19,941 nt of DNA from the IMG/VR virus record IMGVR_UViG_2534681836_000028, positions 1-19,941 of that record; one strand, given 5' to 3'. Position numbers and translations under genes: made by a program. This document shows, piece by piece, positions 1-15,186 of this stretch. This DNA is from a virus (lineage: Duplodnaviria > Heunggongvirae > Uroviricota > Caudoviricetes). Numbering within the stretch: the first letter of the stretch is position 1; every line of letters starts with the position of its first letter. Below the pieces are notes generated by a model, which saw only the letters and a program-made list of their open reading frames with translations, did no database searches and was not told where the DNA came from.

Positions 1-585
1 ATGAATAAGTTACCGGAAAATTCAGACCAGACGAAAAACGTCAAAAAATCACCATCCATAACCCGCATAGCCACCCGGGGAATTATTAACATTTTTGTTC
101 CTCTGATGGAGACTCGCCTGATAACGAATTCTGTACAGCATATGCTGGAACAACAAAAACGCAGGCTGGACAGATTTCGTCAGGTAAATAATAAAAAGGC
201 GCAACTCCACCTCACGTGGGAAGAAGCTCTGCAGGCCAGCCATATGTCAGTAGACGATCTGGATCGTCGTTTCCGCCGGCGCAGAACAGTATGGCGATTC
301 TGTTGCTGGAGTCTGCTGGCCATCGCTTTGTTTCTCAGTGGTATGCTCTTTGCCGCCTCTTCATTACCTCTTACGACTCTGGTACGCGCCATCAGCACTC
401 TTGTGTTGATACTGTCAGGCGTCGCTCTTTGTGCTTCCAGATCACTGATTGTTACATACCGCCTCTGGCAGTTGCATGAACGAAAAGTCAGCGAACCCGA
501 GCAGGGGACTTTCCGTGATTTTCTGAACGACCGCAATGGCTGGCGCAATGCCACATTAATTGCCGTAACCAGTAAACAATACTGA
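1..585 (+). CDS. TraX-like conjugative-transfer inner-membrane protein (IncI-complex type), 194 aa
   Basis: ATG at nt 1, ORF to 585; basic N-terminus then two hydrophobic helices (WSLLAIALFLSGMLFAASSL, VRAISTLVLILSGVALCA); sits directly upstream of a DotA/TraY-like gene. Assignment rests on remembered IncI gene order traX-traY-excA, not on a search. Confidence 0.35.
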   Translation: MNKLPENSDQTKNVKKSPSITRIATRGIINIFVPLMETRLITNSVQHMLEQQKRRLDRFRQVNNKKAQLHLTWEEALQASHMSVDDLDRRFRRRRTVWRFCCWSLLAIALFLSGMLFAASSLPLTTLVRAISTLVLILSGVALCASRSLIVTYRLWQLHERKVSEPEQGTFRDFLNDRNGWRNATLIAVTSKQY

Positions 586-612
586 TCACGTCCAGATGCC
601 AGTACCACTGGC

Positions 613-2850
613 ATGTCGCCATCCCCCTTAATTAAATCCTGTGTGGCCTTTGCCCATACGCAATTCTATTCCGGAGTTACTGTGAAAATTTTACTTCGCG
701 CACTCTGTGCAGGCCTTGCTATATCCTCACTGCCGGCAATGGCTTCAGTGACCTATCAGGATATTGTGTCTGCCGCAACCAATCCTGACGATCTGTCTCG
801 CCAGGCGCTGGTCACGATATTCGGTGATGTAGTCACCAATCCACTGTCAACCAGCGCCCCCTCTCTGATCGGAAGCATGTTCGGGGCGTTCAACAGTATC
901 ATCGCCGTACTTGCCGTTGTCTGGTTTATGTTCATTGGTATCCGTCATGTTGTGCGTTCGGGGCATCAGGGACAGGTATTCAGCACCGGACGCGATATCG
1001 TCGGCACACTGAGTGTCGTTGCAGGTTTTCTGATGATCGTTCCAACCGGAAATGGCTGGAGTATCGCTCAGCTCATTATGTTATGGGGCGCATCGATAAT
1101 GGGGGTTGGGTCCGCCAATGTGATGGTGCAACTTGCCGCTGATAATATCGCAAATGGTTATTCAATGACTGTACAGCCAGTTCAGGCATCCACACGAACA
1201 GCAGCGCGTGGCATTTTTGAAATGGAACTGTGTAAGTATGCGGTTAACGCAGGACTAAATGATTTTAATCAGACGGCCAAATCCTCGACTTCACTAATGA
1301 CAGAATCAGCTAAAACCGCCAGTGGTAATTACACTGTCACGGTATCCAATGGCAGCGGTATCTGTGGTTCAGCCAGCCTGTCAGTAGAAGGAAACGGAAC
1401 AACAGATCAATCGACGATTGGAAAATTCTTTAATCCCTTCAGTAAAAACGAATACAGCGGTGTTATCTCAGCACAACGTGCAGCCATGGATAATATGATT
1501 AGCGACATGGACAACGCTGCCAGTGAGTTTGTGACAACATTTCTGGAAAAAAGAAATTCTGGCAACGGAACATTGCCGGATATCGAGACACGGATTCAGA
1601 GAGCAGCCGACGAGTATGAACGTGCTGTACAAAAATCGCTACCTATTGATAACGGAGAACAATCCAGGAAAGAAGCTCTCAAGTCTTATCTCACAACCTA
1701 TGGATGGGTGACGCTTGGCGCGTGGTATCAGACCTTTGCCACTGCTAACCAACGTCTGGCAGAGCTGGCAGACCGAGCTCCAGCTGTAACTTCAATGTCA
1801 TCACTTGGGGAAGTTGGCGATACTGATTTATTTAGTGCTGTTATGGGGGCATACAAGACTCAATTGCAGAATTCAACTTATACCCCACCTTTAGGTACTA
1901 TAACTTCAGCAGACGAACAACTACTTTCAAAAACAAGCACGCCACAAGATGCTTTAATCAAGCCCACAGAGAAGTTTGGGCAATGGCTTACGAACAATAT
2001 TGCCACCGAGTGGACTGATTCGGGAACAAGTAGCAATCAAGTTAATCCACTGATAAAAATGAAAAATATTGGTGATAAAACTATGGTCGCTGCAGAGGGT
2101 ATTTGGATTACTTATACATCTGCTAGAGTTATTACTTCAGGAACTGGGAGTTCTATATTTGGTAAATTCATAGATTTGACGACAAGTGCTATTTCAACAC
2201 TAAATGCCTTACTTGAGGCCTTAGCGCCCCCCGTATACTTTCTGTTACTACTGCTGTTTTGTGCAGGATTCTCTTTATCTATTTATTTACCATTTATTCC
2301 GTTTATTTTCTGGATGACTGGGATTGGTAACTGGGTCATTAGTGTATTAATCGGATGTACAGCTGGACCTCTGTGGGGGGCAACTCATCTAGGCACATCA
2401 CAGGAGAGAGGGAGTCGTGCTGCCTACGGTTATATATATTTAATAGACAGCATGATAAGACCACCTATCATGGTTTTCGGATTCTTTTTTGCCTCTGTAG
2501 CCATTATAGCAATAGGTACTATATTAAACTTTTTATTCGGTGCTGCACTGACCAATGTACAAATAAGTTCATTTACAGGTATATTTAGCCTCGCAGGTTT
2601 CTTACTTCTTTATGCTAGAAGTTGCACAACCATTGTAGCCGCAGCATTTGCCTTACAAGCATACCTCCCAGACCATGTAATTAATTTCCTAGGAGGACGT
2701 GATGGTGTAAACACGCTTGGCAATATGGCTGGTTCAATAAAAGAGATTTTTGCTGGCAGCAATAGAAACATAAGACACGCACCTAATATAAGAGAGGAGC
2801 AAATTAAGAGGATGAATAACGACAACAATAAGGATGGAATAAAGGGATAA
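613..2850 (+). CDS. DotA/TraY-like polytopic membrane protein (IncI-type type IV secretion component; exclusion target)
   Basis: ORF 613-2850 (745 aa from ATG). A GTG at 682 preceded by GGAG (673-676, 5-nt spacer) is the more likely start and yields a signal peptide KILLRALCAGLAISSLPAMA. Large soluble N-terminal part, then at least 6 hydrophobic helices in the C-terminal third. Architecture matches DotA/TraY; family assignment is from memory. Confidence 0.5.
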   Translation: MSPSPLIKSCVAFAHTQFYSGVTVKILLRALCAGLAISSLPAMASVTYQDIVSAATNPDDLSRQALVTIFGDVVTNPLSTSAPSLIGSMFGAFNSIIAVLAVVWFMFIGIRHVVRSGHQGQVFSTGRDIVGTLSVVAGFLMIVPTGNGWSIAQLIMLWGASIMGVGSANVMVQLAADNIANGYSMTVQPVQASTRTAARGIFEMELCKYAVNAGLNDFNQTAKSSTSLMTESAKTASGNYTVTVSNGSGICGSASLSVEGNGTTDQSTIGKFFNPFSKNEYSGVISAQRAAMDNMISDMDNAASEFVTTFLEKRNSGNGTLPDIETRIQRAADEYERAVQKSLPIDNGEQSRKEALKSYLTTYGWVTLGAWYQTFATANQRLAELADRAPAVTSMSSLGEVGDTDLFSAVMGAYKTQLQNSTYTPPLGTITSADEQLLSKTSTPQDALIKPTEKFGQWLTNNIATEWTDSGTSSNQVNPLIKMKNIGDKTMVAAEGIWITYTSARVITSGTGSSIFGKFIDLTTSAISTLNALLEALAPPVYFLLLLLFCAGFSLSIYLPFIPFIFWMTGIGNWVISVLIGCTAGPLWGATHLGTSQERGSRAAYGYIYLIDSMIRPPIMVFGFFFASVAIIAIGTILNFLFGAALTNVQISSFTGIFSLAGFLLLYARSCTTIVAAAFALQAYLPDHVINFLGGRDGVNTLGNMAGSIKEIFAGSNRNIRHAPNIREEQIKRMNNDNNKDGIKG

Positions 2851-2925
2851 CAAATTAATATATGACTTGCCATATACACTTGGAGAGATTAAAATATCAA
2901 AAAGTGTTTATGGAGGTCATATATA

Positions 2926-3540
2926 ATGATTGGAGCATATGCAAACCGTGGCGGCACCCATTCTAAAAAAGAAATATGCGTGATCGCATTCGCACTTTTC
3001 TACATTATTTTCGCCGTCCCATTACTAATCATTTGGAATACACCTACCAGTTGGGGACTAGCAGTAATCCCAACTGGATTCCTACTATACTCCGGATATA
3101 AAAAAGGAAGAAAGAAAAGAGCAATCGTAAATAATATCTTAGAACGGATAAAGACTGAATGTCATGATGCATTCGATCCAGACCCATCTTACGAATACAA
3201 ATCAATATCATCATTATATTTCGGAATTGATATCAGAAAAGGTACTGCGTTATATATTCGGCTTTACCCCAATAAAACATTAGATGTCATTGGCATTGAT
3301 ATTGATAATTTTACACGGACAGTAGTAAGAGAAAACTGTATGGAAATACACACAAAGTATGTCAATATGCCAATGTTAGAATTGTCTATTGGTGTTAACT
3401 CTGCTCGTTCTATTGCAAACACATTGCACGCAATGGCAGAAAGAGGATACGATTATTCTGTCGATTTTCCTCGCCTGATTCAGGCAAAACGTAAAGAGTG
3501 GGAGCAGATTGCAGGCATGCCTGTAGCTGAAGTATTTTAA
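2926..3540 (+). CDS. ExcA-like entry-exclusion inner-membrane protein (candidate), 204 aa
   Basis: ATG 2926 with GGAGGT upstream; N-terminal double hydrophobic hairpin (ICVIAFALFYIIFAVPLLIIW / GLAVIPTGFLLYSGY), basic KKGRKKR anchor, soluble C-terminal domain; lies immediately after the traY-like gene as excA does in I-complex plasmids (gene order from memory). Confidence 0.35.
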   Translation: MIGAYANRGGTHSKKEICVIAFALFYIIFAVPLLIIWNTPTSWGLAVIPTGFLLYSGYKKGRKKRAIVNNILERIKTECHDAFDPDPSYEYKSISSLYFGIDIRKGTALYIRLYPNKTLDVIGIDIDNFTRTVVRENCMEIHTKYVNMPMLELSIGVNSARSIANTLHAMAERGYDYSVDFPRLIQAKRKEWEQIAGMPVAEVF

Positions 3541-3560
3541 GATAAGCAGCCTCCATAACT

Positions 3561-3588
3561 GCCGGTTCAGATGAGCCGGCTTTTGTTT
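3561..3588 (+). terminator. Rho-independent terminator after excA-like gene
   Basis: Stem gccggttc / gagccggc with 4-nt loop, followed by ttttgtttg. Confidence 0.4.
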
Positions 3589-3637
3589 GCAACAACACAT
3601 AGCTTATGCCGTATTAAATAACCCCAAGGACCTATTT

Positions 3638-3847
3638 ATGGAAAAAACAAAACAGGAATGGTTATATCAGTTACGTCGCTGTTCCAGCTTAAAGACACTT
3701 GAGAAAATTATTGCTAAAAACCAGGGCACTTTAGCCTCGGATAAAATAGAAGCATTCAACTCTGCAGTTGATCATCACCTTGCGGAACTGACAATGAACA
3801 AATTGTACGACAAAGTACCGGCTTCTGTCTGGAAGCATGTAAAATAA
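3638..3847 (+). CDS. Hha/YmoA-family nucleoid-associated expression modulator, 70 aa
   Basis: ATG 3638 with AAGGA 7 nt upstream; C-terminal AELTMNKLYDKVPASVWKHV closely matches the Hha signature AELTMNKLYDKIPSSVWKF (recalled); LRRCSSLKTLEKII matches Hha LRRCQTIDTLERVI. Confidence 0.8.
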   Translation: MEKTKQEWLYQLRRCSSLKTLEKIIAKNQGTLASDKIEAFNSAVDHHLAELTMNKLYDKVPASVWKHVK

Positions 3848-3857
3848 CGCCAACAAA

Positions 3858-3889
3858 AAGAGCAGGAAATCCCACACCTGCTCTTATTC
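3858..3889 (+). terminator. Rho-independent terminator after hha-like gene
   Basis: 9-bp stem aagagcagg / cctgctctt, 10-nt loop, then T-rich tail. Confidence 0.35.
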
Positions 3890-4055
3890 ATGAATAAATA
3901 TATCCAATATATTTTAATGCGAAGAAATAATCTCCGTAGAAACCCCTATAAGAAAAATATCATATGGGAGAAAATCGCAATTATCACAGCCAGCGCATTC
4001 ATTATTTTCGCTGTGCTCTGGCATTAATTATTTTCAACACAAAAAGGAAAAAACA

Positions 4056-4232
4056 ATGAATCTGGTAGACGCCTTTGTCAAAAAAGTAATATCCGAGCCA
4101 TATGAAGAATATGGAAAATGGTGGATAGATGTTGAATACATTTCATGGGGTGTTCCCGGGAAAACAAGACTGATGTTTGAGTCAAAGGAGCAGGCACTGG
4201 AAGTTAAAGAAGGGTACAAATTTTTAACGTGA
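4056..4232 (+). CDS. Hypothetical small protein, 58 aa (MNLVDAFVKKVISEPYEEYGKWWIDVEYISWGVPGKTRLMFESKEQALEVKEGYKFLT)
   Basis: ATG 4056 with AAAGGAAA SD; below the 60-aa cutoff of the ORF track; ends at TGA 4230-4232 just before a strong hairpin; convergent with the dinQ-like gene. Confidence 0.4.
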   Translation: MNLVDAFVKKVISEPYEEYGKWWIDVEYISWGVPGKTRLMFESKEQALEVKEGYKFLT

Positions 4233-4247
4233 GATCTCTTTTTGTTA

Positions 4248-4277
4248 AAGGGCAGGAAGCGGTAACTCCCTGCCCTT
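4248..4277. terminator. Hairpin between convergent genes (probable bidirectional terminator)
   Basis: 9-bp stem aagggcagg / cctgccctt with 12-nt loop, lying between the stop of the 58-aa ORF (4232) and the stop of the dinQ-like ORF (4297). Confidence 0.4.
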
Positions 4278-4296
4278 AGTTACGTTTCCGGGCTTA

Positions 4297-4392
4297 TCAG
4301 TCGACAAGTTCCCGGATCAGTTCCAGAACAGCAATCAGCGCGTTTGCAACGGCAACTACTGCCCTGAGAACGATGATTAACAGATTAATCAT
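4297..4392 (-). CDS. DinQ-like type I toxin, 31-aa hydrophobic peptide (MINLLIIVLRAVVAVANALIAVLELIRELVD)
   Basis: C-terminal 31 codons of track ORF 4297-4593; ATG at 4392 preceded by GGAGA with 5-nt spacer; single predicted helix; ALIAVLELIRELV resembles DinQ ALIALLELIRFLL (recalled from memory). An alternative ATG four codons upstream (4404) would give MEKRM... Confidence 0.55.
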   Translation of the reverse strand: MINLLIIVLRAVVAVANALIAVLELIRELVD

Positions 4393-4464
4393 CCGCTTCT
4401 CCATCACTGGAGAAAGAACCCCGTTGTTCGCTCTTACACTGCCTGTCACAACGGTTTCTATAGT

Positions 4465-4500
4465 GTCAGTTATAGACAGTTCTTCTCCGACCAGAGCACC
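4465..4500. repeat. Direct repeat copy 1 (36 nt) in the 5' region of the dinQ-like transcript
   Basis: gtcagttatagacagttcttctccgaccagagcacc; matches 4653-4688 with 2 mismatches. Confidence 0.7.
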
Positions 4501-4639
4501 AAAACCAGCACCACCTGATGTTTTGGCCAGGACTTGCAACCTGTTCTTCCCGCTGAACAATATGTCGGACAGAACATGCCTCAGAGCTGACATGCCGAGT
4601 ATACACTTATCCAGTACTTGCAGAAATATAATTCCAGAC

Positions 4640-4738
4640 GTACTATCTACAAGTCAGTTATAGACAGTTCTTTTCCGACCAGAGCCACCCACTCTGTAAC
4701 GGAACAGTAAAAAACCGACCTCACCAGTCGGTTTTTTT
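4640..4738 (+). ncRNA. Putative AgrB-like trans-antisense sRNA for the dinQ-like toxin
   Basis: Perfect -10 TATAAT at 4627-4632; repeat copy 2 inside; rho-independent terminator (stem aaccgac / gtcggtt, T7 run) at 4713-4738. The RNA would be complementary over about 36 nt to the toxin mRNA leader. Ends are inferred, not mapped. Confidence 0.35.
4653..4690. repeat. Direct repeat copy 2 (within the putative antisense sRNA gene)
   Basis: gtcagttatagacagttcttttccgaccagagccaccc; about 188 bp from copy 1, same orientation. Confidence 0.7.
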
Positions 4739-4891
4739 ACATCTGTTGTTTCTCAAAATCCGCCCGACATGCCCGTCACACCGGGGAAACTCATGCTTTG
4801 AATCAGAACCAACCATCTCAACTTTGCCGTCTCCTGAAAAAACTGGCACATTCAGTTCGATAACTACCCATAAATACAGAGAGAAAATCCG

Positions 4892-5143
4892 ATGTCAGAA
4901 AAGTGGAGTAAAGAATTCGACTCTTGCTTTCAGGTGGGGAGCATAGAAGAAATTGCCGATGCTCTCGAGAAACGCAGCGGAAGCGAGGAAAATGCGTTAG
5001 CCATGCTGGCAATGACAGCCTTCACACTCATGACCCGACGTGGTATCTGCGAAATGCAGAACGTGGCCCCGGATGGCAAAGGCATTCGGCTGGAGCTAAT
5101 CGGCTTCAGGGGAAATGAAACAATACCGGATACGCTTCATTGA
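4892..5143 (+). CDS. rem: Rem-like small prophage protein, 83 aa
   Basis: ORF 4892-5143; size and position (next to hok-relE-relB-ydfV-flxA) match rem of the K-12 Qin prophage; named from gene order and length memory. Confidence 0.5.
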   Translation: MSEKWSKEFDSCFQVGSIEEIADALEKRSGSEENALAMLAMTAFTLMTRRGICEMQNVAPDGKGIRLELIGFRGNETIPDTLH

Positions 5144-5182
5144 AGAAGAAAGGGCGCAATGAGGTCAGCCTTCGCAACAAAG

Positions 5183-5205
5183 CGGCGGCAGAAAACCTGC
5201 CGCCG
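5183..5205. terminator. Bidirectional hairpin terminator between rem and hok
   Basis: 9-bp GC-rich stem cggcggcag / ctgccgccg, 5-nt loop; T-rich on the minus-strand side after hok. Confidence 0.4.
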
Positions 5206-5214
5206 TGTTGCCCG

Positions 5215-5370
5215 TTAACGTTTAACTTCGTAGGCTAACGTTGCCACAAGCACTGTGTTTCCCTGCTGGAGCCGGAATCCGCAAAGCGAATCCCTCACCA
5301 TCCAGACAAAACACAGAATCGTCACACAGACGACGATTAACATCATTAAAAACGTTCGCTGTGGCATCAT
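5215..5370 (-). CDS. Hok-family type I toxin (hokD/relF position), 51 aa
   Basis: Minus-strand translation MMPQRTFLMMLIVVCVTILCFVWMVRDSLCGFRLQQGNTVLVATLAYEVKR: single TM helix then conserved Cys-containing periplasmic tail typical of Hok; not in ORF track (under 60 aa); lies directly downstream of relE as hokD does in K-12. Confidence 0.7.
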   Translation of the reverse strand: MMPQRTFLMMLIVVCVTILCFVWMVRDSLCGFRLQQGNTVLVATLAYEVKR

Positions 5371-5438
5371 AGCCCCTCCATGTCAACGCAAAGCAGAAGT
5401 GTCACCTTCGGTGCGAAACAGAGATGTCATGCTTTGGT

Positions 5439-5726
5439 TCAGAGAATGCGTTTGACCGCCTCGCTATATACTTCCGAGCGTTCTCTTTTCCCAACAGAAA
5501 TCACGAAAACGACAACTTTCTCGTCTATAACCTGGTATACAAGGCGATAGCCCGAAGACCGGAGCTTAATCTTGTAACAATCAGGCATACCACGGAGCTT
5601 GTTTGCTTCAATCCGGGGTGACTCAAGTACTTCAACCAGCTTCTTTTTCAACTGTTCACGTACCGTCGAGCCCAGCTTTCGCCATTCCTTTAGTGCCCGC
5701 TCGTCAAAATCCAGAAAATACGCCAT
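5439..5726 (-). CDS. relE: RelE mRNA-interferase toxin, 95 aa
   Basis: ORF 5439-5726; RelE/ParE-family sequence; start overlaps relB stop (ATGA at 5726). Confidence 0.9.
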   Translation of the reverse strand: MAYFLDFDERALKEWRKLGSTVREQLKKKLVEVLESPRIEANKLRGMPDCYKIKLRSSGYRLVYQVIDEKVVVFVISVGKRERSEVYSEAVKRIL

Positions 5727-5965
5727 CAGAGTTCATCCAGCGTCACACGTACTGGCTTAGGATTACGAAGCCGTTCTTTCACTATCTCCACAAGTTCAGC
5801 ATCTTCATCACTCAGGAGTGTCTGTTTGAACGGCAAGCGTTCATTGTCAGCGATATACTCGAGCATGAGACGAAGCGCTTCAGAAGGAGTTACACCCATT
5901 TTTTCAAGCGCGGCGTAAGAACGCGCTTTAAGTTCATCGTCAATACGCAGGTTAATGCTACCCAT
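5726..5965 (-). CDS. relB: RelB antitoxin, 79 aa
   Basis: ORF 5726-5965; ribbon-helix-helix N-terminus MGSINLRIDDELK; upstream operator palindrome matches K-12 relO. Confidence 0.9.
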   Translation of the reverse strand: MGSINLRIDDELKARSYAALEKMGVTPSEALRLMLEYIADNERLPFKQTLLSDEDAELVEIVKERLRNPKPVRVTLDEL

Positions 5966-5976
5966 GTCTTACACCT

Positions 5977-6002
5977 CTTGTAATTACAAATGTCATTACA
6001 AG
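5977..6002 (-). promoter_or_regulatory. relO operator / relBE promoter region
   Basis: cttgtaattacaaatgtcattacaag: 12-bp perfect palindrome ttgtaattacaa plus a second attacaag half-site, immediately upstream of relB (minus strand). Confidence 0.6.
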
Positions 6003-6295
6003 TATCGCACTACAACATGCTTAGGGCAAGTCACGAAGGGAGTCAGAAAGTAGTCGTAAGAACGGTGATCACTGTCCGCTTTGTGCCAGGAGCAGCCACT
6101 GCTAAGTCCATCCTGTATTGTGCAGGTCAGCTCGTTTTTAAAGAGTCCGGCCATCATCTTACTGGTACAGACACCATATACTTTGTGACGGTCAGGCTAC
6201 ATATGCACAACTCAACTTATTCATCTATTTTTTGCTTTAGCATGTCAGTGTTGCTTTCTCGTCGGCGGGTGAGCGGTGACCTGACCTGTCGATAA
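5990..6295 (+). CDS. YdfV-like hypothetical protein, 101 aa (doubtful)
   Basis: ORF 5990-6295 divergent from relB; K-12 Qin annotates a ydfV of the same size and position; start overlaps relO and no clear SD is seen, so it may not be expressed. Confidence 0.3.
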   Translation: MSLQVSHYNMLRASHEGSQKVVVRTVITVRFVPGAATAKSILYCAGQLVFKESGHHLTGTDTIYFVTVRLHMHNSTYSSIFCFSMSVLLSRRRVSGDLTCR

Positions 6296-6447
6296 AGGAA
6301 CGTAGCACGTTTTATGCAACACCCGCATGCGGCAGAAAATTATTGCCGAACGTTTACCCCTGTCAACAAGCTTTACTTTCTGAGGCGCGCCAGCCCGCGA
6401 GGAAAACAATCTGAACATCAAACAATTAATGACACAAGAAATACGAT

Positions 6448-6474
6448 TAAAGATTTTTTTGTGCATACCGATAG
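6448..6474 (+). promoter_or_regulatory. Sigma-28 (FliA) class 3 flagellar-type promoter upstream of flxA
   Basis: taaagatt-N11-accgatag versus consensus TAAAGTTT-N11-GCCGATAA, about 24 nt upstream of the flxA ATG. Confidence 0.45.
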
Positions 6475-6497
6475 TGCTTTTTTAAAAGGAGAAATCT

Positions 6498-6830
6498 ATG
6501 TCTGTCACAATTCAGGGAAATACCTCAACCGTTATTTCAAACAACTCCGCCCCGGAAGGAACATCAGAAATAGCCAAAATCACAAGACAAATTCAGGTGC
6601 TGACTGAAAAGCTTGGGAAAATCTCATCGGAAGAGGGGATGACGACACAGCAGAAAAAAGAAATAGCTGCATTGGTACAGAAGCAAATTGAAAGCCTCTG
6701 GGCTCAACTGGAGCAGTTGTTAAGGCAGCAGGCAGAGAAAAAGAATGAAGACGCGACAGTTCAGCCTGATAAAAAAGAAGAGAAAAAAGACGATACAAAT
6801 ACCGCTGGCACCATTGATATTTACGTCTAA
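6498..6830 (+). CDS. flxA: FlxA-like protein (FliA-regulated), 110 aa
   Basis: ORF 6498-6830 with AAAGGAGAAATCT SD; MSVTIQGNTSTVISNN... recognised from memory as FlxA; coiled-coil, Lys/Glu-rich C-terminus. Confidence 0.75.
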   Translation: MSVTIQGNTSTVISNNSAPEGTSEIAKITRQIQVLTEKLGKISSEEGMTTQQKKEIAALVQKQIESLWAQLEQLLRQQAEKKNEDATVQPDKKEEKKDDTNTAGTIDIYV

Positions 6831-6844
6831 GTGACAGCCGTATT

Positions 6845-6867
6845 GTGGCCCTCATCGGGCCACTTTT
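6845..6867 (+). terminator. Rho-independent terminator after flxA
   Basis: Stem gtggccc / gggccac, 5-nt loop, then tttt. Confidence 0.45.
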
Positions 6868-7029
6868 CGCCATCAGCCTTTTCTTTAAAGACATATTATC
6901 TTTGTATCATTTCTGATAGTTAACATTACAAGATATAAGTAATGGACGCACTCCCAATTAGTCTATTTAAATCGCCACGAGTTTAACTGACAACCCATGA
7001 TCAATTATAGAATTGCAACTATTTCTGTA

Positions 7030-8680
7030 GTCACTTTTGTGGGGACAGTCCACAAAACTGCCAACTTCCGCTTCTTGCTCTTAGCGGACATTAGCATAGG
7101 CTATTTGCCATAACGCCTCATTACGCGCACCGCCCAGACTGACTCAGCGCGTTTCTGGCATATCCCCGGTAAAACAAGTAACAAACCACCCGAAAATGAA
7201 CACCAGAAACGCGACTTAAGAATCTACCCTATGAATGGATATGCACTCAACCGAATCGATCTTGGTTTCAATCTTTTTTATCGGGATCAGGCTTCTTTTT
7301 AGGTAACTTCGGGGGCTTAACTTGCTGATGACTTTGCGTTCGGCGCGTAAGCCAGGGATGGTCAGCTTTAGGTTTAACATAGTATTTTGAGCGTAAATCA
7401 ATACGGGCATTATCCACTCGTTCATGGACACTCTTTTCATCATCCAGTGGTATAGGCTCCGGGCCATCAACATACTTTTCCCAGCCCAGCGCTTTCCCGT
7501 CATACAGAACGTTAATTTCACCGTCAAAGTTCTCGCATACAGTAACAACCGAATGCCTAAGTCGATATCCCCGGCCCTCACTGCGTACCTGAAACGCACT
7601 GCTTTTGTACTGGAAAGTGAGATTTTTAGACAGAACGCGCTTCGCCTGTAGGCTGAAGATATAACCCAGTTCCTCTTCAGAATGGTGCACATCAAGATGA
7701 GCATTATCAGTAGTACGAGGCGACGTAGCGAACCGGTTGTTATAGGCTTCAATAAAGGTCGGCAACCATGCATTTGCTGTTTCAATATCACTGATATTCT
7801 GAAGCCGCATTTCTTTGACCAGCCTGTCCTGTAGTGTCTGATTGGCGCGCTCTACCCGCCCTTTTGCCTGCGGGCTGTTGGCATGGATTGGCTCGATGCC
7901 CAGTGTCTTTATCGCACGAGTGAACTGGGTCAGCTCACCTTCCCGCTCTGGGTTATTTACCCTGAATATACTGTGTCTATCAGAGTAGAGAGCGAGCGGT
8001 ACGCCATGATCATTAAGGTAACCCCGGAGGGTTTCCATGTAAGCCCGGGTTGTTTCAGCAGGCACAAAACGCAACGCCATCAACGCACTGGTGGCATCAT
8101 CAATGAAAACGATCAGTGTACATCTGGGGCCTCGATTTTCAAACCAGTCATGAGGTGAGCCATCAATCTGGATCAGTTCACCGTAAGATGGTCGTCGCAT
8201 GCGGCGTTGATATATACGGGCAATTTTACGACGGCGTTCACGCCATACCCCCTCTTCTATCATCCACTTTCTGAGAGTTTCAACGGATAAAGATAAACCG
8301 TGTATCTCACGCAATTTTTCGCACGCAAACGTAGGTCCAAAATCAGCGTAACGGCCTTTGAGGAGTGAAATTACTGTTGCTCTGAATTCAGTAGAAAAGG
8401 AATTATTAGGACGCTTTCCACGTCGGGGGGAAACCAGACCAGAAGGCCCTTCATTTCTATACCGTTGCACCAGACGTTTAACCTGCCGAATAGAAATGCC
8501 AATGCGTGCCGCAGCTTGTTCCTGAGTAATATGTCGATTAATTGACTCCTGAATAATCTGAAGTCGGTGGAGTTCCTTATGACTCATCGTAACAGTCTCT
8601 TTGATCATGAAAAATCCCCCAGAGAATTGTCTGGGGACATTTTAGAATGGTTCAAAGGGGACATTACAGCTTGGTGTTAA
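7030..8680 (-). mobile_element. Insertion sequence, ends not resolved (about 1.6-1.7 kb)
   Basis: Single 446-aa DDE transposase ORF with non-coding flanks; 23-nt hairpin at 7035-7057 and repeated GGGGACA motifs at 7041 and 8633-8665 may mark the termini. Boundaries are approximate. Confidence 0.45.
7268..8608 (-). CDS. DDE transposase (integrase-core/rve type, N-terminal HTH), 446 aa; ISNCY(IS1202-group)- or IS481-like
   Basis: ORF 7268-8608; HTH AARIGISIRQVKRLV; catalytic-core motifs QIDGSPHDW, FIDDATS, AKGRVERANQTL; no IstB-like partner, so IS21 is unlikely; basic Lys/Pro-rich C-terminal tail. Confidence 0.85.
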   Translation of the reverse strand: MIKETVTMSHKELHRLQIIQESINRHITQEQAAARIGISIRQVKRLVQRYRNEGPSGLVSPRRGKRPNNSFSTEFRATVISLLKGRYADFGPTFACEKLREIHGLSLSVETLRKWMIEEGVWRERRRKIARIYQRRMRRPSYGELIQIDGSPHDWFENRGPRCTLIVFIDDATSALMALRFVPAETTRAYMETLRGYLNDHGVPLALYSDRHSIFRVNNPEREGELTQFTRAIKTLGIEPIHANSPQAKGRVERANQTLQDRLVKEMRLQNISDIETANAWLPTFIEAYNNRFATSPRTTDNAHLDVHHSEEELGYIFSLQAKRVLSKNLTFQYKSSAFQVRSEGRGYRLRHSVVTVCENFDGEINVLYDGKALGWEKYVDGPEPIPLDDEKSVHERVDNARIDLRSKYYVKPKADHPWLTRRTQSHQQVKPPKLPKKKPDPDKKD

Positions 8681-9358
8681 CAATAGCCTGCTTCTCCTTG
8701 CCTTTCGGCACGTAAGAGGCTAACCTACATATGTCTAGCATGAAATTGGCCTCAGATTAATGTTAAGCGTCTTGCAGGACGCGTAATGTTAACTGGGGCT
8801 TTTCTCTATCTGCCGTTGGTGTTCATGCCCGAGGCAGATAGCCTCAAGCACCCGCAGCCATTCTACTTAACTACCGTTACCTCGCCAATGTGAAATCAGT
8901 CAGAAAGGCGATCCATAAGAACAATAGCAAGACAATAAATCGCCATTACAGCCGTAATAGCCAGCGCACATTTGAGAACCAGCACCACAACCTCCTGTAT
9001 TGGACGTAGACCAGTCCTGATGAATATGAGGCTGTCTCGTCAGTGATTCAATACAACTATTGGGTATAGTTTCTCTGATTTTTTCTGTGGAAATGGGGCA
9101 CAACCACTAGTCACCACCAGCACTTCTTTTAATACGCAAAGTCCGACACAAGCTAACCTTCTAGTCCGCTTTGAGCGAAAAACAGCCATAATTTAGTGCC
9201 ACGTATATAATGATAGAGCTATTCAAGCTAGCAATTCACATGTAAAAATTCAGAGGGTAGAAGCACATAGTTATAAATGTTGGCTCCATCGACAAATTGC
9301 GGTCTCAAGTACATTTATTAATGTTGCCCCCGCATTAACAAATCATCAAGGTGACGAC

Positions 9359-11146
9359 ATGGACGATATTAATATCAGCCTCGACGAACTTAACACTATT
9401 GATTTATCCCCCTTAATCCAGAGTAAGCTGCCAGTTACCTGCTTTGATATCACAAAGTATCTTTCTAGCCTAGGTGATGGAAGAGCGGAGATAAGACTGC
9501 TAACCCATATTTGCGGTTTTCACTTTCGTCCCGAAAATCCACAGGTACCATTTGGTCCGTGCTTTCAAAGCAGCCAAGGTAGATCTGCAATTCCGGATGA
9601 CATTAACGGGTTGTCGCTGGAGGTACTTTCTCAATTTTGCCCGACGATAGAGCTACCCGAACTTCAAGCTCGTATTGCTGATACACTTTGGGTTCGTAAA
9701 ATTGGTGGAATCCGTTTTCCTTTGCTGGCAGTCCGTGCTTATTATGCGTCCAGTATAGCTATTATGACATCGCAAGGGACGTGGGTTAGTGCTTTAGAAC
9801 GCCTAGAGCGTGCGCTTAGGCTGTGTTGTTTTTTTCGAAAGCATACTGATTTCAGGGATGAATTTGATCAGCTTTCGGCACATCTACTAGCAGAGTATGA
9901 ACGTACCAGAGAACAAGGCGATTCACCTTATCCGCTGCGACTCCTGCAACTCGATATCGACTGTAAAGTGAGTGAGCCATCTTTTATTGCCCAGGAACTC
10001 CTGTTTCTGACAAAAAACTATCTGGCTCAAAAATTATTTTCATTTGCCGTCGATGCCTGTAAAACCGCAATCCCGATTGCGAATAGGTGCTGTGACAGAG
10101 ATACACAGTTTGAATTCTGGCGGCTTCTTGCCGATACACATCTGGAAGAGTCAAAATTCCAAGATGGCGGTATGATTTCGGCAGCCTGCATGCAGAATGC
10201 TATTGAAGCACTGGCTAATATTCCAGGAACCCGAATAGAACGTCTTGCGCTGTATGAAGAAATGCGTGATTACCAAATCGAATCCCGTCACCAGATGTCT
10301 ATCCTTCAGTCTCCCCCTCAAGATATTAGTGAGATTGTCCATCAAGCCAAGAGTCGGGTAGTCGGAAGAGATTTGTTTGATATGGTTTTCAGACTTGCGA
10401 TGCTGGTCTGTCGGCCAACCAGCATTGAGAGACTTAAGGCTCAAGCAATAGAACAAAAGGCCAACAGCATAGCTTGGATGTTTGGATCAACACATATTGA
10501 TCATGAGGGAATGACACTTGCTCGCATACCCGCAGGATTGGGGATTGATGATGCAAATGGGGCAGTTATTTGGCCCATAATGATGACGAGAATGCGTATC
10601 GACCATGAGTTGGCAGTAGCTGGGCAAATTATTCCTGCTACAGATGAGATCACAATGAAATATCCAATCTCGGAGGCGTTTTTTCGCGATATGTTCATCA
10701 ATCATCCCTTCATCCCGTTTGGGCATGAAGAGTTTTTCATCAAGGGTATGGTTTGCGGTTTCAATGGAGATTTTATGACGGCATGCCACGTGTTGATTCC
10801 CCAGATCGAAAATAGTCTGAGATATGTGGCTAAAATTAAAGGTGAGGAACCATCGCAGCTTCACGGGGACGGTTCGCAAGAGCGAAATGGACTCAAGGGA
10901 TTACTAGATAATCCACTGATTATTGAAGCTTTCGGCGTAGACATAATTGGCAATCTTCAGGCCTTACTGGTAGATAAAATCTATGGTGATTTACGAAATC
11001 AACTAGCTCACGGATATGTGCCTGCCGGTTACTACAATCAACCTCCCTGCATTTTTGCATGGTGGCTTGTATTGCACATTCTAATGAACCCTACGGCGAG
11101 ATACTGGCAAGCCACTTATGGCCAAGAGAGTGAGGCTCAGACTTAA
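9359..11146 (+). CDS. Solitary 595-aa cytoplasmic protein with C-terminal HEPN-like Rx4HG motif; candidate abortive-infection/defence effector (possibly DUF4209-like)
   Basis: ATG 9359 with AAGGTGA SD; long uninterrupted ORF; motif DLRNQLAHG (nt about 10994-11014) fits the HEPN R-x4-6-H signature; no TM segment, no Walker motif; flanked by an IS and about 750 bp of non-coding DNA; convergent with phage replication genes. Confidence 0.8.
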   Translation: MDDINISLDELNTIDLSPLIQSKLPVTCFDITKYLSSLGDGRAEIRLLTHICGFHFRPENPQVPFGPCFQSSQGRSAIPDDINGLSLEVLSQFCPTIELPELQARIADTLWVRKIGGIRFPLLAVRAYYASSIAIMTSQGTWVSALERLERALRLCCFFRKHTDFRDEFDQLSAHLLAEYERTREQGDSPYPLRLLQLDIDCKVSEPSFIAQELLFLTKNYLAQKLFSFAVDACKTAIPIANRCCDRDTQFEFWRLLADTHLEESKFQDGGMISAACMQNAIEALANIPGTRIERLALYEEMRDYQIESRHQMSILQSPPQDISEIVHQAKSRVVGRDLFDMVFRLAMLVCRPTSIERLKAQAIEQKANSIAWMFGSTHIDHEGMTLARIPAGLGIDDANGAVIWPIMMTRMRIDHELAVAGQIIPATDEITMKYPISEAFFRDMFINHPFIPFGHEEFFIKGMVCGFNGDFMTACHVLIPQIENSLRYVAKIKGEEPSQLHGDGSQERNGLKGLLDNPLIIEAFGVDIIGNLQALLVDKIYGDLRNQLAHGYVPAGYYNQPPCIFAWWLVLHILMNPTARYWQATYGQESEAQT

Positions 11147-11243
11147 AGTGAATAAGTTTACGAAGTTGGCACTTCCGGATGCATGTCCATATGAGTTGAG
11201 GCGATTTGGTTAATAAGGTTGAGTGCTGCTGAAATTATTCGAT

Positions 11244-15133: not shown

Positions 15134-15186
15134 TTTCTGGTGACGTTTGGCGGTATCAGTTTTACTCCGTGACTGCTCTGCCGCCG
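15134..15186 (+). ncRNA. dicF: DicF sRNA (antisense inhibitor of ftsZ translation)
   Basis: tttctggtgacgtttggcggtatcagttttactccgtgactgctctgccgccg matches the remembered 53-nt K-12 DicF nearly exactly; followed by a T-run; position between ydfB/C and dicB as in Qin. Confidence 0.75.

Follow-up and report, generated by a model that had tools for sequence, protein, structure and literature searches.

A probable DqlB/AgrB type I toxin-antitoxin module in an IncI1-type conjugative plasmid backbone

Introduction

A short open reading frame on the minus strand of a 19,941-nt stretch of DNA (the window, considered here at its full length) lies beside a divergent plus-strand unit that repeats a segment of its leader. 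The arrangement raises the question of whether the two form a type I toxin-antitoxin pair and, if so, to which family they belong, what triggers the toxin, and on what kind of replicon the pair resides. In the original prediction, the locus was described as a DinQ-like toxin with an AgrB-like antisense sRNA, possibly controlled by LexA and relocated to the junction of prophage and plasmid DNA.

The dql family (dqlA and dqlB) was defined in 2016 on chromosomes and plasmids of Enterobacteriaceae and is characterized by conserved elements in the 5' UTR (Kristiansen et al., PMC5066626). For dinQ, a 5'-processed mRNA is translated, in contrast to the inert full-length form; binding of the agrB RNA upstream of the dinQ SD closes it again and leads to cleavage by RNase III (PMC5066626). 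Two plasmid loci have since been studied experimentally. The DqlB of the IncL plasmid pOXA-48 is toxic and is rescued by agrB, the pair constituting an addiction module, and dqlB was reported on 67.4% of IncI1 plasmids in the same work (Nat Commun 2025; PMC12365149). The locus of the IncX3 plasmid pOXA-484 was likewise found to be toxic, rescued by agrB, and plasmid-stabilizing (Nat Commun 2025; PMC12317039).

Results

The minus-strand peptide of 31 amino acids and its GGAGA SD were found as predicted, the coding sequence running from 4392 down to 4297 and the GGAGA being located 5 nt before the ATG (Table 1). The NCBIfam model NF041473 ("DinQ-like type I toxin DqlB"), for which the cut-off is 35 bits, recognized the peptide, MINLLIIVLRAVVAVANALIAVLELIRELVD, with a score of 67 bits and with residues 1-31 aligned to all 31 positions of the model. 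The DinQ model NF041472 scored 20.7 bits, under its cut-off of 30, and a Pfam search with the peptide returned no family, the only match being a sub-threshold one to DUF6486. The expected likeness to DinQ was upheld by a DqlB match above the curated threshold and by collinearity of the locus with dinQ/agrB of E. coli K-12, and on the basis of its sequence the peptide is assigned to the DqlB family and not to DinQ proper. It is identical to WP_001303310.1, the dqlB product annotated in loci L006 and L007, and has 25 of 31 residues in common with the experimentally validated DqlB peptides of both pOXA-48 and the IncX3 plasmid. In the best-matching RefSeq records, the open reading frame was annotated as dqlB in every one among the matches listed.

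Table 1. Features of the dqlB/agrB locus, with positions counted from the first nucleotide of the window.
Feature	Position	Strand	Basis or description
dqlB 3' stem-loop, 13 bp, homologue of the dinQ terminator	4248-4277	minus	Inverted repeat I4; MFE helix +315..+344; K-12 alignment
dqlB CDS	4297-4392	minus	31 aa plus stop, MINLLIIVLRAVVAVANALIAVLELIRELVD; single hydrophobic helix, charged C-terminus
SD GGAGA (4402-4398) in a 7-bp hairpin, UUCUCCA/UGGAGAA	4397-4414	minus	MFE fold of the predicted full-length mRNA
AgrB target in the dqlB 5' UTR (mRNA ~+95 to +127), repeat copy 1	4465-4497	minus	Repeat search, RNAduplex, covariation
CTG-N10-CAG, weakly LexA-box-like	4515-4530		Matches TACTGTATATATATACAGTA at 9/20 positions
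5' end of the predicted primary dqlB transcript, "sequence 1"	4564-4591	minus	MFE helices of +1..+28 with +101..+127
Predicted dqlB -10, TATACT	4598-4603	minus	Homology, by alignment to the promoter of K-12 dinQ; the inferred +1 is 7 nt downstream
Predicted agrB promoter	4618-4646	plus	-35 TTGCAG (4618-4623), 17-nt spacer, -10 TACTAT (4641-4646)
AgrB-family antitoxin sRNA, ~87 nt	4654-4740	plus	Rfam RF02891, model positions 1-84 of 84
sRNA 5' antisense segment	4654-4685	plus	Within repeat copy 2 (4653-4685)
sRNA internal hairpin	4670-4707	plus	Part of the AgrB sRNA
sRNA terminator stem-loop	4709-4737	plus	Fold, 11-bp stem

The plus-strand unit was identified as an AgrB RNA by a match to the Rfam family RF02891 (AgrB), which scored 58.5 bits against a gathering score of 40, covered the full length of the model, and was the single match to it in the window. 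Two other Rfam candidates were rejected: OrzO-P reached 28.5 bits against a gathering score of 60 and spanned the terminator hairpin only, and Atu_C9, at 3857-4029, was below threshold, outside the locus, and from an unrelated phylum.

The promoter assigned to this RNA aligns with the TTGCAA-17-TAGTAT of K-12 agrB, and each of the 12 homologous sRNA copies examined has its TTGC (-35) and TAnnAT (-10) elements, with constant spacing between the two. The perfect TATAAT to which the sRNA promoter had first been assigned does occur at 4627-4632, but it sits in the spacer and is not conserved among the 12 homologous copies. With TTGCAG-17-TACTAT as the promoter, the start of agrB is predicted near 4654, and the sRNA would therefore be ~87 nt long instead of the ~100 nt originally proposed. 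The strong terminator attributed to the unit was recovered as a stem-loop in the predicted fold, and the first 16 nt of the free sRNA were single-stranded.

The two units are connected by a direct repeat. A repeat finder returned 33 nt with one mismatch (4465-4497 versus 4653-4685); the repeat described earlier as 36 nt long thus exists, but its ungapped 36-nt version contains three mismatches and not two. It belongs to no larger repeat family in the window, as exactly two copies were found across the 19.9 kb in a search that allowed up to three mismatches, and none of 200 shuffles gave a match. When the two RNAs pair, the one mismatch in the 33-nt repeat is accommodated as a G.U pair. The proposed pairing of the sRNA with the toxin leader was borne out by RNAduplex, which predicted a duplex of -66.2 kcal/mol with 32 uninterrupted pairs, and the window sRNA with the K-12 dinQ leader gave -35 kcal/mol and 9 bp.

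Nine further loci were fetched from the IncI-gamma/K, IncFIB, IncX1, IncX3, IncX4, IncL/M, and IncF groups, their AgrB RNAs were located, and the 5' 45 nt of each sRNA were compared with the leaders in a 12 x 13 duplex matrix. All 12 sRNAs paired most strongly with a leader of their own recognition type, which was mostly that of their own locus; leaders of the same type from other loci were equal or better partners for L005.a2 (with L006) and L013.a1 (with L010). In the alignment of nine sRNA-target pairs, each from a different lineage, compensatory changes on both sides were observed at 16 of 34 duplex positions. Paired cells made up 90.8% of this alignment versus 37-47% in slid registers, and the observed covariation values were reached by none of 500 shuffles. 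The two-copy layout recurred in every lineage with a different sequence each time, the copies being 187-229 nt apart (188 nt in the window). Since both sites are direct repeats at the DNA level, gene conversion could account for part of their concerted change instead of selection on RNA pairing.

For the toxin mRNA, the transcription start was placed near 4591 from the K-12 numbering and the conserved GCTCTGAGGCAT at +5. Among the leaders compared, this anchor was present only in those of the window, K-12, and pCT, and the toxin promoter is therefore not comparable across all lineages. The MFE fold of the predicted 352-nt mRNA reproduced the "sequence 1:2" interaction of K-12, in which +1..+28 pairs with +101..+127. 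Within this fold, the 1:2 pairing was seen at +17..+28 with +101..+113 and the 3:4 pairing at +178..+195, and the 2:3 pairing was judged by eye only. The 5' end of the mRNA pairs in cis with the AgrB target region in this model and is thus itself AgrB-like. The SD hairpin matches "sequence 3:4" of the dinQ model and aligns with the SD hairpin of K-12, and the unpaired probability of the SD in the full-length RNA was 0.00. As modeled, the dqlB 5' UTR is homologous to that of dinQ, with elements 1-4 predicted to be capable of the mutually exclusive 1:2, 2:3, and 3:4 pairings.

Truncation of the leader from its 5' end in silico raised the SD accessibility modestly, from 0.00 to 0.09-0.26, without a sharp dependence on position, and the K-12 control was equally weak in the same calculation. 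No processing site was located by these truncations, in which a "+44-like" activating cut was sought. Sequestering the target drove the SD accessibility to 0.00 in every truncation tested. The folding results are consistent with the dinQ model without being decisive. Additionally, a generic, consensus-based promoter and terminator scanner was run on 4200-4900, where it called neither a promoter nor either of the two obvious terminators. The promoters were missed because their -35 elements match the consensus at only three of six positions, that of dqlB being a poor match, and the AgrB terminator was missed because its U-tract is absorbed into an A/U-extended stem.

The locus as a whole was collinear with K-12 dinQ/agrB from terminator to terminator, through the CDS, the SD hairpin, the leader blocks, the target, and the sRNA. 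Homology to the K-12 dinQ-agrA/agrB locus (Weel-Sneve 2013; PMC5066626) extended over its entire length, with 57% nucleotide identity on the toxin strand. Common to both are the 1:2 pairing in cis, the promoter of agrB, the terminator, and the placement of the target, at +88..+119 in K-12 and ~+95..+127 in the window. The two loci also differ in several respects. The DinQ peptide has 27 amino acids compared to 31 for that of the window. K-12 carries two agr copies (agrA and agrB), with 430 nt to the target, whereas the window has one, 188 nt from its target. Furthermore, the K-12 locus is chromosomal, between gor and arsR, and has a LexA operator, while the window locus is plasmid-borne and the operator is not conserved.

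The surroundings of the module were those of a plasmid. Over positions 1-5381, the window showed 99.2% identity to pUA1136, an ordinary plasmid of the IncI type whose genes follow the same order, and the order traX-traY-excA-hha-orf-dqlB/agrB-orf-hok is found on ordinary IncI-type plasmids too. Among complete E. coli genomes, 1,079 records matched a 521-bp stretch of the locus, and ~1,077 of the 1,098 matching places were on plasmids. Judged from these sequence comparisons, the module is native to the backbone of IncI1-type conjugative plasmids. The supposed relocation to a prophage/plasmid junction was not upheld, as mapping to pUA1136, pDEC9B-1, and a Qin-like prophage put the module in its usual IncI1 backbone position. 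The neighboring gene had also been named as rem, but the translations bear no visible likeness when compared by eye and the strand is opposite relative to hok; the open reading frame at 4892-5143 (plus strand) is a backbone frame annotated as the hypothetical protein WP_001291965.1 in pUA1136 and pDEC9B-1.

A transition from plasmid to prophage DNA does occur in the window, starting 640 bp to the right of the AgrB terminator end, and dqlB/agrB is not involved in it. The hok CDS is located at 5215-5370, ~480 bp to the right of AgrB, and prophage-like DNA of the Qin type (relE, relB, ydfV, flxA ... dicF, integrase) matches from 5364 onward. Positions 5381-8682 form a 3,302-bp unit that has TGT...ACA ends and imperfect terminal inverted repeats (19/26), carries an IS1202/ISNCY-like transposase ORF, and is inserted at hok. 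On either side of the unit in pDEC9B-1, the SD/ATG of the plasmid hok is duplicated over 16 bp, and in the chromosomal prophage the flanking duplication is of 15 bp at the equivalent place in hokD. These traits fit the IS1202 family. In the window, the left flank of the element is plasmid-type and the right flank prophage-type, an arrangement implying either that two copies of the element have recombined or that the assembly is chimeric.

Because of the NCBIfam and Rfam matches, the collinearity with K-12, the covariation between sRNA and target, and the experiments on homologues, the locus is read as a DqlB/AgrB type I toxin-antitoxin system that serves as a plasmid-addiction (post-segregational killing) module of an IncI1-type conjugative plasmid backbone, with a probability of roughly 0.9.

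Among the other readings considered, the strongest is that of an SOS-inducible stress toxin like the chromosomal DinQ, in which LexA would repress dqlB and the trigger would be DNA damage and not plasmid loss. Such a role would be in keeping with the homology of the module to the LexA-controlled dinQ, with the CTG-N10-CAG motif that the original prediction had offered as a possible, weak LexA box, and with a LexA site (HI 11.64) predicted at the homologous position for dqlB of pTF2, another IncI1 plasmid (PMC12211044). When 4250-4800 was scanned against the 20-nt LexA consensus TACTGTATATATATACAGTA, the motif at 4515-4530 was indeed the only site with both CTG and CAG. However, the candidate (ACCTGATGTTTTGGCCAGGA) matches the consensus at only 9 of 20 positions, has CTGA in place of the conserved CTGT, and lies some 60-77 nt inside the predicted transcript (~+62 to +77), where it coincides with the conserved leader helix +61..+72; chance alone would yield about 0.12 motifs of this kind in the region. 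The K-12 operator (AACTGGATAATCATACAGTA), in contrast, matches at 15 of 20 positions, has both CTG and CAG, and overlaps the dinQ -10/+1, and the homologous segment of the window has lost the CTG half, with CCAGTA (the CAG half-site) remaining. In the pTF2 study, DqlB was absent from the proteome detections, so that induction could not be shown (PMC12211044). By its sequence, the 4515-4530 motif is probably not a functional LexA box, SOS control of the window dqlB is unsupported, and a damage-induced toxin appears unlikely.

Still less probable is a decayed or silent remnant, in which a copy homologous to DqlB/AgrB would have lost its expression or toxicity. The -35 elements match the consensus poorly, as might be expected of such a remnant, but every element of the module was intact, including the ORF, the SD, the leader helices, the target, both terminators, and the conserved sRNA promoter. 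In addition, the duplex contains just one G.U pair, and 250 of the 1,079 matching records were at least 99% identical to the window sequence.

It is barely conceivable that the true gene is the mechanical 98-aa ORF (4297-4593, minus strand), of which the 31-aa CDS is the 3' portion, and that the repeat is a coding or recombination scar and not an antisense determinant: the frame is open for all 98 codons and databases often give Dql peptides a longer N-terminus (Kristiansen et al., PMC5066626), but the inferred +1 coincides with its ATG (4593-4591) or lies downstream of it, the family matches are limited to residues 68-98, the upstream portion is a conserved structured leader, and the RefSeq annotation is of the 31-aa product.

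Alleles of the module were compared over a regulatory core that begins upstream of the SD, takes in the target and both promoters, and includes the 5' antisense segment of the sRNA. The toxin CDSs of p17-AB00090 and pESI were identical to that of the window at the nucleotide level (96/96), and the 3' half of the sRNA matched that of the window at 55/55 and 52/55 positions, respectively. Their regulatory cores, however, were just 38-81% identical to the window core, and they are predicted not to cross-pair with the window, at -32 to -46 kcal/mol versus -66 kcal/mol. A second, orphan agrB copy in pCT matches the p17-AB00090 allele. The occurrence of an identical toxin with differing cores is the only mildly new observation of this study. 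One tentative explanation, which we consider possible but not the likelier outcome, is that the regulatory core is an exchangeable specificity cassette and that recombination in its conserved flanks gives rise to orthogonal alleles of one toxin.

Discussion

In the mechanism proposed for the window, the minus strand would be transcribed into a dqlB mRNA of ~350 nt. Pairing of +1..+28 with +101..+127 in the full-length transcript would keep the SD in a closed hairpin, and the primary transcript would be translationally inert. Processing at the 5' end, by analogy with dinQ, would free +95..+127, which could then open the SD. The divergent AgrB (~87 nt) would form a ~33-bp duplex with +95..+127 through its single-stranded 5' end, which would re-close the SD and create an RNase III substrate. 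Upon loss of the plasmid, the sRNA would not be replenished, the 31-aa membrane peptide would be made, and the plasmid-free cell would be killed or arrested. By analogy with the characterized homologues, the DqlB of the window would be toxic when expressed and its AgrB would neutralize the toxin through a translation block and RNase III cleavage; the transcription start sites, 5' processing, RNA half-lives, and killing for the window copy are extrapolated in the same manner.

The closest experimental precedents are the DqlB/agrB pairs of pOXA-48 (IncL) and pOXA-484 (IncX3). Like the window, both encode a 31-aa DqlB of the same NCBIfam family and a divergent sRNA that carries at its 5' end a second copy of part of the toxin leader (23-41 nt, at a distance of 190-229 nt, compared to 188 nt in the window), and both are located on a conjugative plasmid adjoining transfer genes. 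The window allele is of the IncI1 type, and its recognition sequence differs from those of the two validated alleles, with which no cross-pairing is predicted (-31 to -47 kcal/mol, 8-11 bp). The pOXA-48 sRNA is also too diverged for the Rfam model, while the window sRNA passes it.

More distant parallels are found in TisB/IstR-1 and ZorO/OrzO. These systems also combine a small hydrophobic toxin with a divergent, trans-acting sRNA that binds the 5' UTR far from the SD, and their primary transcripts are likewise inert until 5' processing, but they share no sequence homology with the window module. The Hok/Sok (pnd) system of the same IncI1 backbone is similarly a type I plasmid addiction module. 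Sok differs from AgrB in being an overlapping antisense RNA encoded in cis, whereas AgrB is encoded in trans by way of a repeat, and the two toxin families are unrelated.

Earlier publications already cover the family, the RNA mechanism, the role in addiction, and how common the family is on IncI1 plasmids, and the exact peptide is already annotated as dqlB in RefSeq. The practical value of the present analysis lies in annotation, since the AgrB sRNA partner was left unannotated in the matching plasmid records. Resistance and virulence plasmids of a widespread family gain a further stability determinant in the module, whose recognition sequence is distinct from both of the validated ones. The sole aspect that could lead to novelty is that of allele-specific cassettes, as it concerns specificity and cross-immunity between competing plasmids. 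If the cassettes are indeed exchangeable, co-resident or competing plasmids of the IncI complex would be unable to disarm each other, and orphan copies of agrB, like the second one in pCT, would be anti-addiction devices.

Possible recombination between copies of a 3.3-kb IS1202-like element

The plasmid and prophage portions of the window were joined by a 3,302-bp unit that contains relE, relB, ydfV, flxA, and ydfW as well as an IS1202/ISNCY-like transposase ORF, and whose terminal inverted repeats are imperfect (19/26 matching). In a comparison of copies of this unit, the one in plasmid pDEC9B-1 had the same 16 bp (CATCATAGCCCCTCCA) directly repeated on either side, and the one in a Qin-like prophage of the chromosome had 15 bp (ATAGCCTGCTTCTCC) duplicated in this way. 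The flanks of the window copy differed from each other, with a plasmid-type sequence on the left and a prophage-type sequence on the right. Mismatched flanks of this kind are the signature either of homologous recombination between a plasmid copy and a chromosomal copy of the element, which would have fused plasmid and chromosome into a cointegrate, or of a chimera created when the 3.3-kb repeat was assembled. Among the complete E. coli records searched, none spans at least 80% of the window.

Locations of features in the window and in comparison loci
Feature	Location	Strand	Remarks
Predicted dqlB mRNA 5' end	window 4564-4591	minus	GUCAG...GGCA.GUUCU.UCCGAC
hok CDS (plasmid hok/pnd toxin)	window 5215-5370	minus	
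3,302-bp unit	window 5381-8682		flanks 5365-5380 and 8683-8697; ends TGT...ACA
IS1202/ISNCY-like transposase ORF	window 7268-8608	minus	446 aa; inside the unit
sok	window 8682-8853	minus	Rfam, 106.9 bits
Hypothetical ORF	window 9359-11146	plus	595 aa; fills slot of Kiwa KwaB-like gene region
DicF sRNA	window 15135-15186	plus	Rfam, 72.5 bits vs. 48
3.3-kb unit, comparison locus L001	L001 10143-13443		
3.3-kb unit, comparison locus L004	L004 about 6002-9278		
Second AgrB-like RNA, pCT (NC_014477.1)	L005 1220-1307		37.4 bits, just short of threshold 40

A DicF sRNA is expected for a Qin-type prophage, and its presence confirmed the right-hand part of the window as Qin-type. About 2.4 kb of this part (8866-11242) departed from the reference Qin-like prophage, which carries a Kiwa KwaB-like gene and its neighbors at the same position. 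This slot may be a variable position for defense genes.

Possible exchange of the dqlB/AgrB recognition core

The dqlB coding sequence of the window was identical to those of p17-AB00090 and pESI (96/96 nt), and the 3' half of the sRNA matched at 55/55 and 52/55 positions, respectively. Between these two parts, at 4393-4685, lie the leader with the target, the promoters, and the antisense segment; this stretch shared only 38-81% identity with the two plasmids, and no cross-pairing was predicted between their sRNAs and that of the window. Such a mosaic suggests a cassette-like exchange of the recognition core. The predicted 5' end of the dqlB mRNA is a degenerate third copy of the sRNA antisense segment, and in the MFE fold it takes up the sRNA target in cis.

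The second AgrB-like RNA of pCT lies approximately 300 bp from the cognate AgrB RNA. Its 5' end fits the leader of another dqlB allele, the p17-AB00090 type (predicted -62 kcal/mol, 23 bp), better than that of pCT's own toxin. This second RNA may represent an antitoxin orphan or an anti-addiction copy, much like agrA of K-12.

Insertion of the element at hok loci

The pDEC9B-1 and Qin-like prophage copies share an insertion point, since each sits where a hok gene has its SD and start codon. The 3.3-kb unit thus resembles an IS1202-family element with cargo genes and a preference for hok loci as targets. While the mok/sok leader directly adjoins the hok/pnd CDS in an uninterrupted IncI-type plasmid (L003, 6867-7024), the plasmid CDS in the window is separated from its own leader, and the closest sok-type leader is that of the prophage, 3.3 kb away. 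The plasmid hok CDS is now located downstream of relBE, the same placement as hokD. If the unit is indeed a hok-targeting cargo element, it follows that the familiar relBE-hokD arrangement may itself be a product of its insertion.
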